Below are positions 3,714-14,485 of a DNA stretch of 64,000 bases, one piece after another. Each line of letters starts with the position of its first letter. Within the stretch, counting starts at the first letter, position 1. The stretch is from Bacteriovoracaceae bacterium UBA1511 (GTDB taxonomy: Bacteria; Bdellovibrionota; Bacteriovoracia; Bacteriovoracales; Bacteriovoracaceae). The position numbers and the translations under genes are program-made. The stretch is taken from contig DCQT01000033.1 of assembly GCA_002323535.1 (NCBI GenBank), positions 31,663 to 95,662 of the forward strand, written 5' to 3'. The notes beneath the pieces are model-generated. The model was not told the origin of the DNA. It saw only the letters and a program-made list of their open reading frames with translations, and did not search any database.

Positions 3714-4343
3714 CTAAATAATTGATTTAATAAACCTGACAGATGTATCCACTGCCTCTGTCAGGTTTTCTTTTATTGTTTTTCCTGATTTCTTACGTGG
3801 CTTTAAGTCGTGGTCACCATCAAAATAAAACTCTATACCAATACTCTTTTTAAGCGCTTGATTTTTAAGCCACTCTTTTTTCCCAAATGGGTCACGATCC
3901 CCTTGATTAATAAGAATTTTTGAATAAATGGAGTTATTTAGGGCTTCAATCCTGGAGGTATCTTCTTTTCCTGGTGAGCAAAATGGGAAACCAAAGCAGA
4001 TGACTCCTTTTGCCTCTAATATATCAGAACTAGTGCAAACTCTTGAGCCCATTGATTTTCCTCCTAAAAATAAGTCACCTTCAACCTCTCCATGGGAGCG
4101 GCAGCTTGATATGACCTCTTCCAGATGTTTTAGAAGTTTAGGCATTCTATCTGGTGGAAATTTTTTGTTCTCGGTGAACCTTCTTTCCATGTAGGCGAAG
4201 TTAAATCTTATAACCTTGATATCCCTCTCTGTGAACAGGTTAGCCACAGTGGTCATCCACTCCGAGTTCATTGGCGCGCCGGCGCCATGGGCAAATAAAA
4301 GGGTTGAAATAGGGTTCTTTGGGCGATTAATCATTAAGTTCAT
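3714..4343 (-). CDS. Alpha/beta-fold hydrolase (KANL3/Tex30-like, COG3571-type)
   Basis: LLFAHGAGAPMNSEWM, nucleophile elbow GGKSMGSR, GDRDPFG and GDHDL. Confidence 0.75.
   Translation of the reverse strand: MNLMINRPKNPISTLLFAHGAGAPMNSEWMTTVANLFTERDIKVIRFNFAYMERRFTENKKFPPDRMPKLLKHLEEVISSCRSHGEVEGDLFLGGKSMGSRVCTSSDILEAKGVICFGFPFCSPGKEDTSRIEALNNSIYSKILINQGDRDPFGKKEWLKNQALKKSIGIEFYFDGDHDLKPRKKSGKTIKENLTEAVDTSVRFIKSII
3734..3775 (+). terminator. Rho-independent terminator of rpsU, overlapping the 3' end of the convergent hydrolase gene
   Basis: ACCTGACAG (3734-3742) pairs with CTGTCAGGT (3758-3766), followed by TTTTCTTTT. Confidence 0.6.
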
Positions 4344-7848: not shown

Positions 7849-8802
7849 CTACGCCGTGACCGGCTTCCCAATAAAATTTACGCCTTGTCCAATCTCAGAA
7901 AGTGCATCAAATACGTTCGAATATAAAAACTCATGGCCTAGATCACTTAATGCCTTTGCTTTTATATTTTGAGAGTCAAGGATTATTGAGGACATTTCAC
8001 CGAATATCAGTTTCAACATTTGGGGAGGGACAGGGAAAAGAGCGGGTCTACCAACTGCTTGAGCGAGTGCTTTTGTAAATTCTTTATTGGTGGTTACTTC
8101 AGGGGAGACAGCATTAACAATGCCTTTGTAATTTTCATTGCCAATTGCTTGGATGTAAATATTTACTAAGTCTTTTACATGGATCCAACTCATTATTTGC
8201 TTGCCGTTTCCAATAGGGCCTCCGCCACCAAGTTTGAAAACAGGAAGGAGTTTCTCTAGAGCACCTCCTGTGCTTCCGAATACCACACCAACTCTGGTTA
8301 TCAGTGTCCTTTTGGCTTTGGTTAATTTATTTGCCTCGGTCTCCCAATCTTCACACACCCTTGATAGAAAACCTTTTCCATGAATTGAAGATTCCTCTAA
8401 TTCATCTGGTAAGTTAGCTTCATAAATACCGACAGCACTGGTGGAGATAAATAGATCGAGGTCGTTTTTGAGATGTTGCTCTATTCCTCTAACTAAGTTT
8501 CTTGTACCAAGAATTCTTGAATTATAAATTTTATCTTTTTGATCATCAGACCATCTTGCGGCACTAATATTTTCTCCGAGTAAATTGATTACAACATCAA
8601 TTGGATTTCCACTGATTGTAGTAAAAGCTTCTTGAGGAGTAGGTTCCATTAGAGGGTTCCAGGCAACGAACTTCACGTCTCGCCTCATTTGATATTTTTT
8701 TGTGTTCCTTGTTACTACGACTACTTCATGGCCGTTTTTAAGTAATTCTTTTTGTAAGTATTTACCTACAAATCCTGTGCCGCCGGTTATAAGTACGTTC
8801 AT
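7849..8802 (-). CDS. TIGR01777-family NAD-dependent epimerase/dehydratase (YfcH/SDR39U1-like, with DUF1731)
   Basis: MNVLITGGTGFVGKYL Rossmann motif. C-terminal PALFPVPPQMLKLIFGEMSSIILDSQ..LGHEFLY is DUF1731-like. I prefer the start at ATG 8802 rather than the ORF-track 8862. Confidence 0.85.
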   Translation of the reverse strand: MNVLITGGTGFVGKYLQKELLKNGHEVVVVTRNTKKYQMRRDVKFVAWNPLMEPTPQEAFTTISGNPIDVVINLLGENISAARWSDDQKDKIYNSRILGTRNLVRGIEQHLKNDLDLFISTSAVGIYEANLPDELEESSIHGKGFLSRVCEDWETEANKLTKAKRTLITRVGVVFGSTGGALEKLLPVFKLGGGGPIGNGKQIMSWIHVKDLVNIYIQAIGNENYKGIVNAVSPEVTTNKEFTKALAQAVGRPALFPVPPQMLKLIFGEMSSIILDSQNIKAKALSDLGHEFLYSNVFDALSEIGQGVNFIGKPVTA

Positions 8803-8992
8803 GTGAATACCTTTGAATTTAGTAATATTCTTAATTATATCTAGGCTAGGTTTAGTTAACAATAAACGCAGGCTAGACCTAAAGAAAAAATTTTAGATAA
8901 ATTTTATTTAATTAATTTCAGTCACTTAGCTTTTCTCCACAAGAGATAATTTTGAATCTCATATTAACCCTTAGGTCTGTCGATAAGAATTA

Positions 8993-9364
8993 ATGCTCAA
9001 AAATATTTTTACAATATTACTTCTTCTCTCCTTGAGTAACCTTTATGCAGAAGATTACTTTTTTAAAGGGGTTCGTGTGCCTTTGGACAAGCATGGAGAT
9101 TATGCACTCATTTCGAAAGAGTGTGTCAATTGCATGGCAAAGAGGGCACTAAAAGAAATTACACCGATGGAGAACTATGGAATTATGGCAATTGGTGCGC
9201 CGGGTGCAAAACTTTGCATGAGTATTGAGGGAGCTAAATATGAAATATTTGACTCTAAGCTTGGGCAGCAGGGGTTTTGTTTATTCTCTGATGGAAGTTA
9301 CGTGGATACAGATGGTTTAATGTATTTTTCAGACCCTTCGAATAAAAAAAAGATAGATAATTGA
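8993..9364 (+). CDS. Small secreted Cys-containing protein, DUF333-like
   Basis: Signal peptide. GAPGAKLCMSIEGAKYEIFDSKLGQQGFCLFSDGSYVD resembles the DUF333 pattern. Ends 10 nt before the next gene. Confidence 0.4.
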   Translation: MLKNIFTILLLLSLSNLYAEDYFFKGVRVPLDKHGDYALISKECVNCMAKRALKEITPMENYGIMAIGAPGAKLCMSIEGAKYEIFDSKLGQQGFCLFSDGSYVDTDGLMYFSDPSNKKKIDN

Positions 9365-9374
9365 GGAGTAAGGG

Positions 9375-11588
9375 GTGTTAAGAATATTCTTTATCCTTCT
9401 TGTTTTTTGCTCTAGGCAGTCAAATGCACAGCTCTCTTGTCGAAAAAGACCAAATGGAGAAGGGGTTAGATTAGATGTGTCCAGGGATAAGGAAATGGCG
9501 CCAAAGGACAAATCTGGAAGCTCAATAGATGGGTCATTAAAAGGAGCGAAAGTAACATCCCAAGGGTTCATTGGTTCTTGTGCTGGGCATAGTACCTCTT
9601 TACTGATTAAGGCGGCACACCCTGATAAGCCGCAGGTCATTCCCGAGTTAATCCAGGCATGTGACCAGTCGAAGTATGGCACCATTGATGGGAATAACCC
9701 AATGGTTTTGATAGGCTGCCTCGCAAAAAACCCATCAAGAAAATATTGTCCACTAAAGGCAGATATTCCACTGGATGAACAAGTTAAAATTAAGTCAATT
9801 CAGGCATCACGCTCAAAGTTCATGAGCTTATCTCTGCCAGACCAGACAAAAGTAGAGGAGGCACTTAAGAAAGTTTATTTTCAGTTGAACACTGGAATGT
9901 CCTCTGAAACGGCCACTTTATTTTGCGCTAAAAATTTTATCTCATACCTTCCTGAAGGGACGACAGACTCTGAAAGTCTGGGGAGAGATCCTTCGATCTT
10001 ATTAAGGCTCAGACATTACAAGAACCTATTCAAGAACGTCAGTGATCATTATTCAAATATAAATGCCAAAGGTTCAAAAACAAGATTTATAAAATATGAC
10101 ACTGTTCCTTCTAACGAGGTCGAGCAAAATCAACAAATTCAAGAGTTGGCCAAAATGCAAGCTGAAATATCTAATAGGCTTGAACACTGTAAGGCATTTT
10201 CTTGCGCTCCTGGAAATATCAGAAATATAGAGAAGAGCTTCTATTCTTTCAAAAAAAGCATAGATGAATTTAAAGAGTTTCAAAATGATAACAAAGTACA
10301 CCGAGGAGGTTTTTTTGGGCCTTCAGAAGAAAAAGTAAAAGCTTTTAAGCAAAAGGTTTCAACAATTAGAAAAAGTCTCGCTGGATTAGAAAATAGTATT
10401 GTTGCCGAGGGAAAAGGGGTACATAAGGTAAGTCTCGATGTTGCTTTGGTAAAAGCAAAGATGGACAAAACAGAAAACCCTGAATCACGAAAAAATTTGC
10501 TGCGGTATAAATCAACATTAGTTCAACTAGCTGCAGTACCAGTGCCGAAAAGAAGGAGTGAGAAAATTAGATTTCGAAGAAGGTTGAAAGCAGCTTTTAA
10601 AACTACTGCGCAAAAGTTTGGTTTAATTGAAGAAGCTGTTGAGGAAGATTACAAAATAGTAAGATCAAAAATTAAAAAAGGATGTTCGATTGATAGTCTT
10701 GAAGAGATGATTGATGTTTTTCCTATCATTTGTAAAAGCGGAGAAAAGGATGAGTTTTTTGAAAAAGTTAGAAGTGTTTTAAGCCCATTATTTGCCTACC
10801 ATCGGCCACATCGATCGTTTGACCCTTCAATAATATTAGATGTGTTCAAAACTAAAAATGTAGACGCATATACAAGTCGCATCACTTGTGAAGATTCGGA
10901 AAAGTTTAAAGTTCCTATTAAGTCTAAGGACTTTGAATACTTAGATCTTGGGGACTTTTCAAAAGTCCCTAAATTTGAAAAAGCTTTGAAGAATGCTCTA
11001 GTGAGGAAAATTTTAAGAGAAAAAAATCCAAAAATTATTAAGTATATTAAGAAAATTTTTGGATCAAATAAGAAGTTAGTGAAGTGCTTGGGGAAAGATA
11101 CCTCTAAAGCTTGCGCCGCCGCGTTTGATAAAATTGACGTTCATGTTTTGAACAGTTACACCTCAGAGTTCTACCCCAAAATTGTAACAAAAATTCATAA
11201 TAAATACGCAAAAGCATTAAATAAAAATAAAAAAAAGGTTCTCAGGGAAAAGTTAATGTCTCTCAATGAAAATAAACCTGCAGTGCTAGGCATATGCTCA
11301 AGTGTTTTGCACAAAGATCACCGTAGGCCGCCTGCGACTGCCGTATCTACAGGTAATGCAAAAGTTGATGAGAAAAATTGTGGAGCTCACGCATTAACAG
11401 TGATTGGTTACAGGTGTAACAAGGGCAAAGTCGAATATTTATTGCAAAATAGTTGGGGTGTTCGTGCATGTAACCAGTATCGAAGATCTCGTGAAATTGA
11501 GTGTCGCAATGATAAAGACCAAGGTAAAATTTGGATTTCAGAGGGCTTACTATCTAAGGGCGTACTCAACTTGACCCAGCATAAGTAA
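9375..11588 (+). CDS. Secreted papain-like (clan CA, C1-type) cysteine peptidase with a very large insertion between the catalytic motifs
   Basis: GTG start and signal peptide. SQGFIGSCAGHS matches papain QGxCGSCWAFS (Gln63, Cys69). CGAHALTVIGY..EYLLQNSWG matches GGHAVxxVGY..KNSWG (His672, Asn692). Confidence 0.7.
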   Translation: MLRIFFILLVFCSRQSNAQLSCRKRPNGEGVRLDVSRDKEMAPKDKSGSSIDGSLKGAKVTSQGFIGSCAGHSTSLLIKAAHPDKPQVIPELIQACDQSKYGTIDGNNPMVLIGCLAKNPSRKYCPLKADIPLDEQVKIKSIQASRSKFMSLSLPDQTKVEEALKKVYFQLNTGMSSETATLFCAKNFISYLPEGTTDSESLGRDPSILLRLRHYKNLFKNVSDHYSNINAKGSKTRFIKYDTVPSNEVEQNQQIQELAKMQAEISNRLEHCKAFSCAPGNIRNIEKSFYSFKKSIDEFKEFQNDNKVHRGGFFGPSEEKVKAFKQKVSTIRKSLAGLENSIVAEGKGVHKVSLDVALVKAKMDKTENPESRKNLLRYKSTLVQLAAVPVPKRRSEKIRFRRRLKAAFKTTAQKFGLIEEAVEEDYKIVRSKIKKGCSIDSLEEMIDVFPIICKSGEKDEFFEKVRSVLSPLFAYHRPHRSFDPSIILDVFKTKNVDAYTSRITCEDSEKFKVPIKSKDFEYLDLGDFSKVPKFEKALKNALVRKILREKNPKIIKYIKKIFGSNKKLVKCLGKDTSKACAAAFDKIDVHVLNSYTSEFYPKIVTKIHNKYAKALNKNKKKVLREKLMSLNENKPAVLGICSSVLHKDHRRPPATAVSTGNAKVDEKNCGAHALTVIGYRCNKGKVEYLLQNSWGVRACNQYRRSREIECRNDKDQGKIWISEGLLSKGVLNLTQHK

Positions 11589-11624
11589 CCAATCTAAAAA
11601 ATCGAGTAAAAAAGATACTAACTA

Positions 11625-11652
11625 TTGAAAATAACGTACATTCAGTTATAAA
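11625..11652 (+). promoter_or_regulatory. Candidate sigma70-type promoter of the polyamine operon
   Basis: TTGAAA (11625-11630), 16-nt spacer, TATAAA (11647-11652), 30 nt upstream of the ATG at 11682. Confidence 0.35.
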
Positions 11653-11681
11653 TTATTCTTGCAACTTTATGGTGAGATATT

Positions 11682-12620
11682 ATGGTTTTTGAGGGATCAG
11701 AAAAAAAAATCGAAGTAATTGTTAGTCCAGGCGTTGGTGACTTAAGGAAAATGGGAAAGTCTTTTTGGGCAAGAATAGTTTCCAAATGTGACGCTGAAAT
11801 TATATCCGAAATTAAAAACAACCAAGTACATGCCTACCTTCTTTCAGAGTCCAGTTTGTTTGTATGGGAATATTCATTTCTAATGATTACGTGTGGCCGA
11901 ACATCGTTAATAAATTCTCTTATTGAGGTATGTCTGGAGTTTGGAAAAGAAAATATTGAAGACGTGATTTTTCAGCGAAAAAATGAGTATTTTTCTCACA
12001 TGCAAAAAAGTGCGTTTTATGACGACGTAAAAAAAATTGATTCTTTAAAGCCATCAAAAGCTTGGCGACTAGGAAATATTGATGGGCACCATAACTTTGT
12101 TTTTAATTATTCAAAAAACGGAAAGTGGGACGCTGGAGATAAAACATTTGAGCTTCTTATGTACAACTTACCAACTCAGGTAGGGGAGCTTTTAAGAAAG
12201 CAAGGAGTCAGCGCTAAAAGTGTTAGGGATTATTTAGGAGTTGAATCTCTTTTTCAAAACTTTACGATTGATGACTGGGTATTTGACCCATACGGATATT
12301 CTTTAAATGCGATTAGAGACGATTATTACTACACCATTCACCTCTCTCCTGAGGAAAATGGATCATATGTTTCATTGGAGACGAATGATTCAACGCTTGA
12401 GGGGCAAAATATAATCTCTCATTTCTGTGAAAGGCTTAGGCCAAAGAGTTTTGATGTGATTAGTTTTAATTGGCATGAAAGTTATGATTCTGAAATTTAT
12501 CAGCTCGTTGACTCTTGTGAGCAATCTTTGGAAAATGGTTTGGCGGTTAAATTTTGTCAGTATGTTGATACCAAAAACATAAAAAGCTCCAATGGGTATT
12601 TATTATTCGAGCACAAATAA
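11682..12620 (+). CDS. S-adenosylmethionine decarboxylase proenzyme, eukaryote-type (class 2)
   Basis: FEGSEKKIEV, AYLLSESSLFV (pyruvoyl self-cleavage site, human YVLSESSMFV), TCGRT, FDPYGYSLN, and YTIHLSPEENGSYVSLETN (human TIHITPEPEFSYVSFETN). Confidence 0.9.
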   Translation: MVFEGSEKKIEVIVSPGVGDLRKMGKSFWARIVSKCDAEIISEIKNNQVHAYLLSESSLFVWEYSFLMITCGRTSLINSLIEVCLEFGKENIEDVIFQRKNEYFSHMQKSAFYDDVKKIDSLKPSKAWRLGNIDGHHNFVFNYSKNGKWDAGDKTFELLMYNLPTQVGELLRKQGVSAKSVRDYLGVESLFQNFTIDDWVFDPYGYSLNAIRDDYYYTIHLSPEENGSYVSLETNDSTLEGQNIISHFCERLRPKSFDVISFNWHESYDSEIYQLVDSCEQSLENGLAVKFCQYVDTKNIKSSNGYLLFEHK

Positions 12621-12629
12621 AGGATTTTT

Positions 12630-13484
12630 ATGCATTCAAAACTTTGGATTGAAGAAAAACATGAGAATTTTTCACTAGGTTTTAAAGTTAATAAAGTTTT
12701 ATTTTCTGGAAAAAGTGATTTTCAAACAGTTGATGTGGTTGAAACAGAGCAGCTGGGAAACATGCTTTTGAATGATGGCCTTATTATGTGCACGGAAAAA
12801 GATGAGTTTGTGTATCATGATATGATCGCGCACGTGCCGTTATTTGTTCACCCTACCCCTAAAAAGGTTTTAGTCATCGGGGGTGGTGATGGCGGAACGG
12901 CTCGAGAGGTTTTAAGGCATCCAAATGTAGAAAAATGCGTGATGGTTGAAATTGATAAAATGGTTGTTGATGCTTCAATTGCGCATTTGCCGATAACGTC
13001 TTGTGTCTTTGATAATCCAAAACTTGAACTTCACATTGATGATGGCCTGAAATTTGTTAAAGAAACAAAAGAAAAATTTGATGTAGTTTTAGTTGACTCG
13101 ACTGATCCTATTGGCCCGGCGCAGCCTCTATTTGGAGAAGAATTTTATCAAGATATATATAATTGCCTAAATGACGATGGAATTGTTGTGTCTCAAGGAG
13201 AGTCACCATTTTATGAAGTACCGATGCAAAAAAAGTTAATGGGTATTATTAATAAAATATTTCCCATCTCAACCATCTATAATTTTTCAAACCTAACTTA
13301 TCCTGGAGGGCTTTGGTCATTTACATTTGGTTCAAAAAAGCATCATCCGATTAACGACTTCAAGTCAGAGCGGGTTAGCTCTTTTGATGGAGAGTTTAAG
13401 TATTATAACCAGCGAATTCACCCAGGGGCTTTTGCTATACCAAGCTTTATGGCAAAAGAGCTTGAGGGATTAATTAAGGATTAA
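12630..13484 (+). CDS. speE: Spermidine synthase
   Basis: FQTVDVVET, VLVIGGGDGGTAREVLRH and VDSTDPIGPAQPLF. Confidence 0.95.
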   Translation: MHSKLWIEEKHENFSLGFKVNKVLFSGKSDFQTVDVVETEQLGNMLLNDGLIMCTEKDEFVYHDMIAHVPLFVHPTPKKVLVIGGGDGGTAREVLRHPNVEKCVMVEIDKMVVDASIAHLPITSCVFDNPKLELHIDDGLKFVKETKEKFDVVLVDSTDPIGPAQPLFGEEFYQDIYNCLNDDGIVVSQGESPFYEVPMQKKLMGIINKIFPISTIYNFSNLTYPGGLWSFTFGSKKHHPINDFKSERVSSFDGEFKYYNQRIHPGAFAIPSFMAKELEGLIKD

Positions 13485-13487
13485 AAA

Positions 13488-13940
13488 ATGCGTTATTGGT
13501 TAATGAAAACCGAGCCAGATGTCTTTTCGATTGATGATTTGAAATCACAAAAAACGACTCCTTGGGAAGGTGTGCGAAACTACCAAGCGAGAAATTTCAT
13601 GCGTGATGAAATGAAAAAGGGCGACTTGGTTTTAATTTATCATTCAAATGCAAAACCTCCAGGGGTCGCAGGCGTTGGTGTTGTCTCAAAAGAAGCGTTT
13701 CCAGATCATTTTGCCTGGGATAAAAAAAGTAAATACTACGATCCAAAGTCTCCTAAAGAAAATCCACGATGGATGATGGTAGAAATTAGATTTAAAAAGA
13801 AATTTAAAGAGATTCTATCTCTGGCAGAACTTAAAGAGACAAAGGGACTGGAGGATATGCTTATTTTAAGAAAGGGAAATCGTCTTAGTATTACGCCCGT
13901 TGAGAAGAAGCATTACGAACAAATAATAGGAATGAGATAA
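13488..13940 (+). CDS. EVE (PUA-like) domain protein
   Basis: MRYWLMKTEPDVFSIDDL..WEGVRNYQARNFMRDEMKKGDLVLIYHSN..PGVAGVGVV. Confidence 0.85.
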   Translation: MRYWLMKTEPDVFSIDDLKSQKTTPWEGVRNYQARNFMRDEMKKGDLVLIYHSNAKPPGVAGVGVVSKEAFPDHFAWDKKSKYYDPKSPKENPRWMMVEIRFKKKFKEILSLAELKETKGLEDMLILRKGNRLSITPVEKKHYEQIIGMR

Positions 13941-14485
13941 TGGATCAAAAAAAACTGGAAATGATAAAAGATTCAATAAGAACAATCCCAAATTTTCCAA
14001 AACAAGGAATTTTATTTCGTGATATTACAACTGCACTTCAGAGCCCTGAGTCATATAAGGCGATTATCTCTTTGTTTGAGGAAAAGTTAAAAAAAATAGA
14101 GTTTGATGCTATCGCTGGTATTGAGTCTCGTGGATTTGTCTTCGCCTCGGTGCTTAGTTATTTATTTAATAAGAAATTGATTCTTATTAGAAAAAAAGGA
14201 AAGCTTCCTTGTGAGGTAATAAGGCAAGAGTATCAATTAGAGTACGGGACAGACGAGCTTGAAATCGACCCTACTGCAATAAATGAAAACGAAAAGGTCA
14301 TACTTGTGGATGACCTTCTTGCGACAGCGGGAACAATTTTAGCTGCTCAAAAGTTAGTTCATCGTTGCGGGGGGCAAACTCCCCTCGGGCTTTTTGTTAT
14401 TGATCTTCCTGAGCTCGGAGGAGCGAAAAAATTAGAGGAAAATAAACTTCCTTTCATTTCTCTCATAAATTTCGAAGGCCATTAA
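13940..14485 (+). CDS. apt: Adenine phosphoribosyltransferase
   Basis: FPKQGILFRDIT, GIESRGF and the PRPP loop VILVDDLLATAGT. The start overlaps the EVE stop (TAATG). Confidence 0.95.
   Translation: MDQKKLEMIKDSIRTIPNFPKQGILFRDITTALQSPESYKAIISLFEEKLKKIEFDAIAGIESRGFVFASVLSYLFNKKLILIRKKGKLPCEVIRQEYQLEYGTDELEIDPTAINENEKVILVDDLLATAGTILAAQKLVHRCGGQTPLGLFVIDLPELGGAKKLEENKLPFISLINFEGH

Follow-up and report, generated by a model that had tools for sequence, protein, structure and literature searches.

A 64,000-bp stretch of the genome of Bacteriovoracaceae bacterium UBA1511 (GenBank contig DCQT01000033.1; the whole of this stretch is called the window below), with a G+C content of 36%, harbors at positions 9375–11588 an open reading frame (ORF), the only long one at this place, encoding a protein of 737 amino acids (aa) with the sequence motifs of a papain-type (C1) cysteine peptidase. 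It is directly preceded on the same strand by a small gene for a secreted protein, here called the partner gene (Table 1). Since an in-frame TAA (9369–9371) is located just upstream of the GTG start codon at 9375, no earlier start of the peptidase gene is possible, and its putative ribosome-binding site overlaps the last base of the stop codon of the partner gene. The N-terminus of the peptidase displays a hydrophobic stretch followed by S-N-A / Q19, which looks Sec-type, and members of the protein family described below likewise have A-x-(D/Q)-C after a hydrophobic N-terminus; the peptidase is thus presumably exported via Sec. A reading as a lipoprotein was dropped, as a lipobox is absent before Cys22 and Cys12. 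Only about 44 residues separate the predicted cleavage site from Gln63, leaving no I29-type prodomain, and a Pfam search of the peptidase gave no match to Inhibitor_I29.

Gln63 is located six residues ahead of the putative nucleophile Cys69 (TGT), while His672 (CAC) follows after a further 603 residues, lies 66 residues from the C-terminus and has the stretch Asn692-Ser-Trp-Gly downstream of it. The initial annotation had described a Gln-x5-Cys motif near the N-terminus after the signal peptide, His and Asn motifs within the last 70 aa, and a Cys–His distance of 603 residues, all of which agree with the codon positions determined here. The window contains only this one copy of the family.

Table 1. 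Features of the peptidase gene and its partner gene in the window, with the conservation of the putative catalytic residues in long family members.
Feature	Position	Strand	Remarks	Basis
Partner gene, 123-aa secreted four-Cys protein	8993..9364	+	DUF333-like C-terminal half; ends 10 nucleotides before the peptidase start codon	
Putative ribosome-binding site GAGGAG	9364..9369	+	5 nucleotides upstream of the peptidase start	sequence
Peptidase ORF	9375..11588	+	737 aa plus stop codon, GTG start	
Predicted Sec-type signal peptide, aa 1–18	9375..9428	+	predicted cleavage S-N-A / Q-L-S-C	reading of the sequence
Papain-fold N-terminal half (L-domain equivalent, about aa 19–135), putative	9429..9779	+	holds Gln63 and Cys69	hhalign, PDB profile alignments, AlphaFold2
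Inserted helical domain, about aa 136–612, predicted	9780..11210	+	approximate boundaries	AlphaFold2, conserved Cys
Papain-fold C-terminal half (R-domain equivalent, about aa 613–737), putative	11211..11585	+	holds His672, Asn692 and Trp694	
Gln63 codon	9561..9563		kept in 131/142 long members	hmmalign
Cys69 codon	9579..9581		kept in 132/142 long members	hmmalign
His672 codon	11388..11390		kept in 142/142 long members	hmmalign
Asn692 codon	11448..11450		kept in 141/142 long members	hmmalign
Trp694 codon	11454..11456		kept in 130/142 long members; others Tyr, His, Asn or Phe	hmmalign

Searches with the single protein sequence against Pfam, NCBIfam and PDB yielded suggestive matches only (E about 0.04–0.6). 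Those in PDB were to chymopapain, glycyl endopeptidase and cathepsin K (E 0.2–0.6); here the C-terminal half matched best, and the N-terminal one was matched weakly, though in colinear order. A family profile built from an alignment of 80 members, used against PDB, revealed cathepsin K (E 2.4e-5), ficin, caricain and others as well as xylellain (3ois, E 6.1e-5), for which the best-scoring stretch was the N-terminal one; in the cathepsin K alignments, N- and C-terminal stretches were colinear, the N-terminal one being weakly matched. The papain family profile PF00112 was matched by 27 of the 80 full-length members (E <= 0.01, best 9.8e-8), and by 27 of 36 cores from which the insert had been deleted (best 1.4e-8). 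When a profile of these 36 insert-deleted members was aligned by hhalign with papain residues 14–183, for which an unverified template served, one colinear stretch resulted (probability 89.8%, E 1.8e-6). This alignment paired the Q-x5-C motif with papain Gln19/Cys25, GGxxC with the Gly65-Gly66 region, RAVGISVC with papain QPVSVVL, and H...NSWG with His159...Asn175-Ser-Trp-Gly. Thus, the N-terminal half corresponds to about papain residues 14 to 95 and the C-terminal half to about 100–183.

Structure prediction pointed in the same direction. With the 80-sequence alignment as input, AlphaFold2 (AF2) returned a model with a mean predicted local distance difference test score (pLDDT) of 76.7 and a predicted template modeling score of 0.63, in which both parts of the core reached a pLDDT of about 90–96, while an alignment of only four sequences gave a pLDDT of 47. 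In the predicted structure, a helix (69–81) begins at Cys69, a strand (671–682) begins at His672, and a further strand (685–691) ends just before Asn692; in the model, the secondary-structure setting of Cys, His and Asn is therefore the canonical papain arrangement. A Foldseek search of the model against PDB resulted in C1 peptidases for all of the top 50 matches (probability 0.82–1.0), including the PepC-like dipeptidyl aminopeptidase 5wdk as the top match, ficin, cathepsins K, S and B, Legionella Lpg2622, actinidin and Der p 1. Profiles, hhalign, AF2 and Foldseek thus agree with the earlier proposal of a huge insert inside one C1 fold, and together they support the view that both halves of the protein belong to a single papain fold, as far as alignments and a predicted model can tell.

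An exhaustive profile search showed that the protein belongs to a family of at least 224 representative clusters (E <= 1e-3), while a word-indexed homolog search had found only three close relatives with about 50% identity, which keep all motifs and the gene neighborhood. Most family members have 450–756 residues and a signal peptide, and share an N-terminal motif (QDQDGLGTCYAN) and a C-terminal one (HAxxxxGYRCxxGKxxYLIQNSWG). In the 80-member alignment, Gln63, Cys69, His672, Asn692, Ser693, Trp694, Gly695 and several cysteines were invariant or nearly so. Mapping by hmmalign revealed a Cys–His spacing of 339–640 residues with a median of 470 among the 132 members in which both residues were aligned, so that the window protein is near the top of the family range. 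The split architecture is therefore a trait of the whole family and not peculiar to the gene in the window.

The intervening sequence had been described as Lys-rich, largely helical and free of recognizable motifs, and this description holds: Lys accounts for 14.3% of residues 136–612, nearly all of the region is helical in the AF2 model, and no sequence match was found in Pfam, NCBIfam or PDB. About 20 helices were predicted between residues 133 and 632 with a pLDDT of mostly 70–90, the last of them extending into the C-terminal core. Foldseek revealed no convincing match other than to C1 peptidases in its PDB library and none in its viral library. Based on the hhalign alignment, the insertion point maps to the loop between the L and R subdomains of papain, roughly at papain residues 90–115. 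Four cysteines of the insert (Cys453, Cys505, Cys571 and Cys580) are kept in at least 95% of the members, which argues for a folded extracytoplasmic domain rather than a linker. Alignment occupancy was patchy at residues 180–520, indicating that this part varies in length, with higher values at about 320–380, 401–420 and 521–560.

In regard to the partner gene, its homologs all display four invariant cysteines, and the protein encoded in the window has a predicted signal peptide. Its match to PF03891 (DUF333), a domain widespread in Proteobacteria, reached 20.2 bits (E 7.2e-4) at a gathering score of 25, and nine of 25 partner homologs matched DUF333 at E <= 0.01, the best at 5.2e-7. The similarity is confined to the C-terminal half of the partner, while the N-terminal half, of the pattern W-x-x-G ... 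C-x(n)-C-x-A, is peculiar to the partners. An apparent mention of DUF333 in the literature (PMC10318531) turned out to be DUF3335 and was set aside. The pairing of both genes was then assessed by searching all ORFs in the six reading frames of 46 loci with a jackhmmer profile built from the 123-aa protein. It matched only ORFs directly adjoining a peptidase gene of the family in the same orientation, and did so in 37 of the 46 loci, upstream of the peptidase gene in about 21 and downstream in about 16, with ORFs that often overlap or abut. Among the nine loci lacking a partner, six contain weak peptidase matches (E 2.7e-21 to 4e-8), one of these with a Cys–His spacing of 295 and five representing C1-like proteins of ordinary length, and two loci are cut close to the gene. 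Since the pairing survives both the inversion of gene order and the duplication of the module, a specific functional interaction between the two proteins is likely.

Some loci differ in their layout or in the size of the insert. The whole module of partner and peptidase is tandemly duplicated in L033 and L038, while L029 has one partner gene with a family peptidase gene on either side, indicating that paralogs have expanded in some genomes of Bacteriovoracia. Shorter relatives accompanied by a partner have spacings of 271 and 283 (L031 and L033), L037 has a spacing of 295 without a partner, and the C1-like proteins of ordinary length in L040, L043 and the Myxococcota loci L041, L045 and L046 have spacings of about 150–205, likewise without a partner. 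This series suggests that the insert grew stepwise and that the association with the partner arose with or before its expansion.

Compared to the papain family (C1A, PF00112; papain, cathepsins K/S/L, xylellain and Lpg2622), the protein shares the order Gln-Cys-His-Asn, a Q-x5-C motif at the N-terminus of a helix, an H-A-x-x-x-x-G-Y strand, N-S-W-G and a predicted export signal. Differences are the Cys–His spacing of 603 (339–640 in the family) instead of about 134 in papain, for which the helical insert of about 480 residues between the subdomains accounts, the missing I29 prodomain, a PF00112 score under the gathering cut-off, an Ala instead of Trp after the nucleophile, where the family consensus has Tyr, and the small neighboring gene. 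Within the papain-like superfamily, large insertions are known between the Cys helix and the beta-sheet, and insertions can part catalytic residues by tens to hundreds of positions and thereby shape specificity (PMC10318531). The "fingers" of USP and UCH enzymes (C19, C12) are beta-rich inserts in other families, whereas the insert predicted here is all-helical and placed in what appears to be a true C1 core with N-S-W-G. We know of no described C1 clade combining a Cys–His spacing of 340–640, an all-helical, Cys-rich insert and a dedicated secreted partner.

Several observations weigh against a papain-type enzyme controlled by its partner. The window protein itself reached only 11.3 bits against PF00112 (E 0.35, residues 667–696) and, after deletion of the insert, 15.9 bits (E 0.014), both below the cut-off of 20.7. 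The Foldseek matches had E-values of only 0.01–0.1, and since their alignments of about 120–146 columns are too short to span the insert, they do not show that the two halves pack together. Around the nucleophile, the subclade of the window protein has TSQGFIGSCAGH, which deviates from the family consensus given above, and named members of the family, e.g., MBC7539315.1 from Bacteriovorax sp., are annotated as "hypothetical protein". A literature search returned no function for DUF333, a sequence search of PDB gave no solved relative of the DUF333-like partner, and the arguments for a putative role as inhibitor or chaperone are gene adjacency, the export signals shared by both proteins and the missing prodomain. 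Because the window protein stays below the gathering score while the family profiles are significant, the C1 homology is carried by the profiles and not by the single sequence. The comparison with a Peptidase_C1 hidden Markov model, which the initial annotation had recommended, thus came out positive at the level of the family, with significant and colinear matches, while the single sequence remained at the E-value given above. On balance, we are highly confident that the gene encodes a divergent C1 peptidase with a large insert.

Could the motifs be coincidental, or the ORF be the product of a fusion or an assembly artifact? Each single-sequence C1 match taken for itself is indeed non-significant (E about 0.2–0.4). 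However, independent assemblies yielded more than 130 full-length proteins of the same architecture, in which the motifs form the best-conserved columns; at the profile level, the matches to C1 were significant and colinear, and synteny as well as ORF integrity hold in L001–L003. A chance occurrence, which had been named as the outcome that would overturn the initial annotation, is thus refuted by family conservation and profile matches, and what probability it retains is negligible. A catalytically dead or repurposed papain-fold protein, in which the insert carries the function, e.g., as a binding or scaffold domain, would explain that the subclade of the window protein has CAGH at the nucleophile, compared to CYAN in the family and CWAF in papain, and also the net charge of about +54 (136 Lys and Arg, 82 Asp and Glu; family median −1), which suggests binding to an anionic surface. 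Pseudo-enzymes normally lose one or more catalytic residues, though, and the family retains these almost without exception; Gln, Cys, His, Asn and Ser-Trp-Gly are all present in the three close homologs as well as in the window protein, which makes an inactive protein improbable. A more serious alternative accepts the C1 fold but assumes an exopeptidase or oligopeptidase, or an enzyme acting on a non-protein amide, with the insert closing part of the cleft. Additional elements in C1 enzymes typically convert an endopeptidase to an exopeptidase, as in cathepsins B, C, H and X and in C1B enzymes. Bleomycin hydrolase and PepC (C1B, PF03051) likewise carry extra helical material between Cys and His at a spacing of about 300, which restricts access to the cleft, and the PepC-like 5wdk led the Foldseek matches. 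Against PF03051, the window protein gave no match, and weak matches were limited to five of the 36 cores and one of the 80 full-length members (best 8.9e-4), whereas those to PF00112 were far more frequent and stronger. In addition, the insert is unlike the helical and hook domains of C1B enzymes, to which it shows no sequence similarity, being two to three times larger and cysteine-rich, and C1B enzymes are cytoplasmic, oligomeric and without a signal peptide, whereas export is predicted for the peptidase studied here. Membership in C1B was rejected based on the rare and weak PF03051 matches and the presence of a signal peptide, and we consider an exopeptidase, an oligopeptidase or an enzyme acting on a non-protein amide unlikely.

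For the small protein, a role as cognate inhibitor or folding partner of the peptidase appears most likely from the gene arrangement and sequence features. In staphopain–staphostatin, SpeB–Spi and chagasin/ICP, a small protein adjoins a clan CA peptidase gene and is presumed to protect the producer. The module resembles these protease–inhibitor operons in its small same-strand neighbor of a peptidase gene; it differs in that the partner is DUF333-like and not a staphostatin, Spi or chagasin, as no Pfam match to any of these was obtained, and in that it has its own predicted signal peptide. The main competitor is a partner acting as a substrate-recruiting or targeting subunit or as a co-secreted effector, or one that is merely co-transcribed. 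The missing Pfam match to known cysteine-peptidase inhibitor families fits such a role, and adjacency by itself is silent on the kind of interaction. On the other side, the pairing outlasts inversion of gene order and tandem duplication, which suggests that each peptidase copy has a specific interaction of its own; export signals are present on both proteins, and the peptidase has no prodomain of the kind on which other secreted C1 enzymes rely for folding and latency. We therefore give the adaptor or effector role appreciable weight, but less than that of a cognate inhibitor or folding partner.

From these data, we infer a peptidase activity, export, and a role for both the insert and the partner, which may be combined as follows. 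Positions 8993–11588 would form a two-gene module of a predatory bacterium, the larger gene of which would encode a Sec-exported papain-type peptidase without an I29 prodomain. A helical domain of about 480 residues, probably held by disulfide bonds, would have arisen by expansion of the loop joining the L and R subdomains, and Cys69 and His672 would nevertheless meet in one active site, with Gln63 forming the oxyanion hole and Asn692 orienting the His. Most likely, peptide bonds would be cleaved by the usual thiolate–imidazolium mechanism. The insert most likely gates the cleft or selects substrates, in analogy to the helical and hook domains of C1B enzymes and to occluding elements known from cathepsins B, C, H and X. 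The partner would bind the peptidase as an inhibitor and/or folding helper, thereby replacing the missing prodomain, and may protect the predator's own envelope. Taken as a whole, i.e., a C1 enzyme with both the insert and the partner in these roles, we regard this model as reasonably probable.

We propose only tentatively, and with more doubt than conviction, that the DUF333-like partner represents a new class of secreted cysteine-peptidase inhibitor or in-trans chaperone and that the module is a latent "safety-catch" protease directed against prey. If true, such a module would provide a first functional handle on DUF333 and define a new subfamily of C1, with an active site gated by a helical domain of about 300–500 residues. 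From the near-obligate pairing, a directly testable hypothesis for DUF333 follows, and the natural series of insert sizes, with spacings of about 270–295 in three shorter relatives and 339–640 in the family, suits studies of gating. Though papain enzymes are among the best-studied proteases, the family escapes standard annotation because the large helical domain splits the catalytic core. With its recognition, the set of hydrolytic enzymes attributed to predatory Bacteriovoracia, bacteria that attract interest both as living antibiotics and as sources of enzymes, would grow by a considerable number of secreted cysteine peptidases.

Regarding its distribution, one genome of each GTDB species was scanned with two C-terminal motifs derived from a 10-sequence C-terminal alignment, which resulted in 43 loci, most of them from Bacteriovoracaceae, Bacteriovorax, Halobacteriovoraceae or other metagenome-assembled genomes of Bdellovibrionota/Oligoflexia. 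A few weak matches came from Myxococcota. In regard to the lineage specificity asked about in the initial annotation, the family occurs almost exclusively in Bacteriovoracaceae and further metagenome-assembled genomes of Bdellovibrionota. A literature search for proteins of this family and for cysteine peptidases of Bacteriovorax or Halobacteriovorax found nothing relevant. One homolog, at positions 4001–6235 of L047 (ENA ERZ28548060, a long-read "pilon" contig), is broken into three ORFs of 428, 134 and 196 aa, and the adjacent DUF1295 gene is fragmented as well; these breaks are probably due to indel errors in the assembly and do not indicate a pseudogene.

As to the window protein itself, its positive charge together with the altered nucleophile motif may point to a different target, e.g., an anionic surface. 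Directly downstream of the peptidase gene, a block at positions 11682–14485 contains a gene for an S-adenosylmethionine decarboxylase of the form typical of eukaryotes (PF01536, E 1.2e-53), behind which a spermidine synthase, a protein with an EVE domain and a phosphoribosyltransferase are encoded. This block is syntenic in the three related contigs L001, L003 and L047. A scan of positions 8800–11800 for promoters and terminators revealed nothing above background. Three ORFs of 62–118 aa on the opposite strand (9329–9685, 10074–10301 and 10280–10468) overlap the peptidase gene and are most likely spurious.

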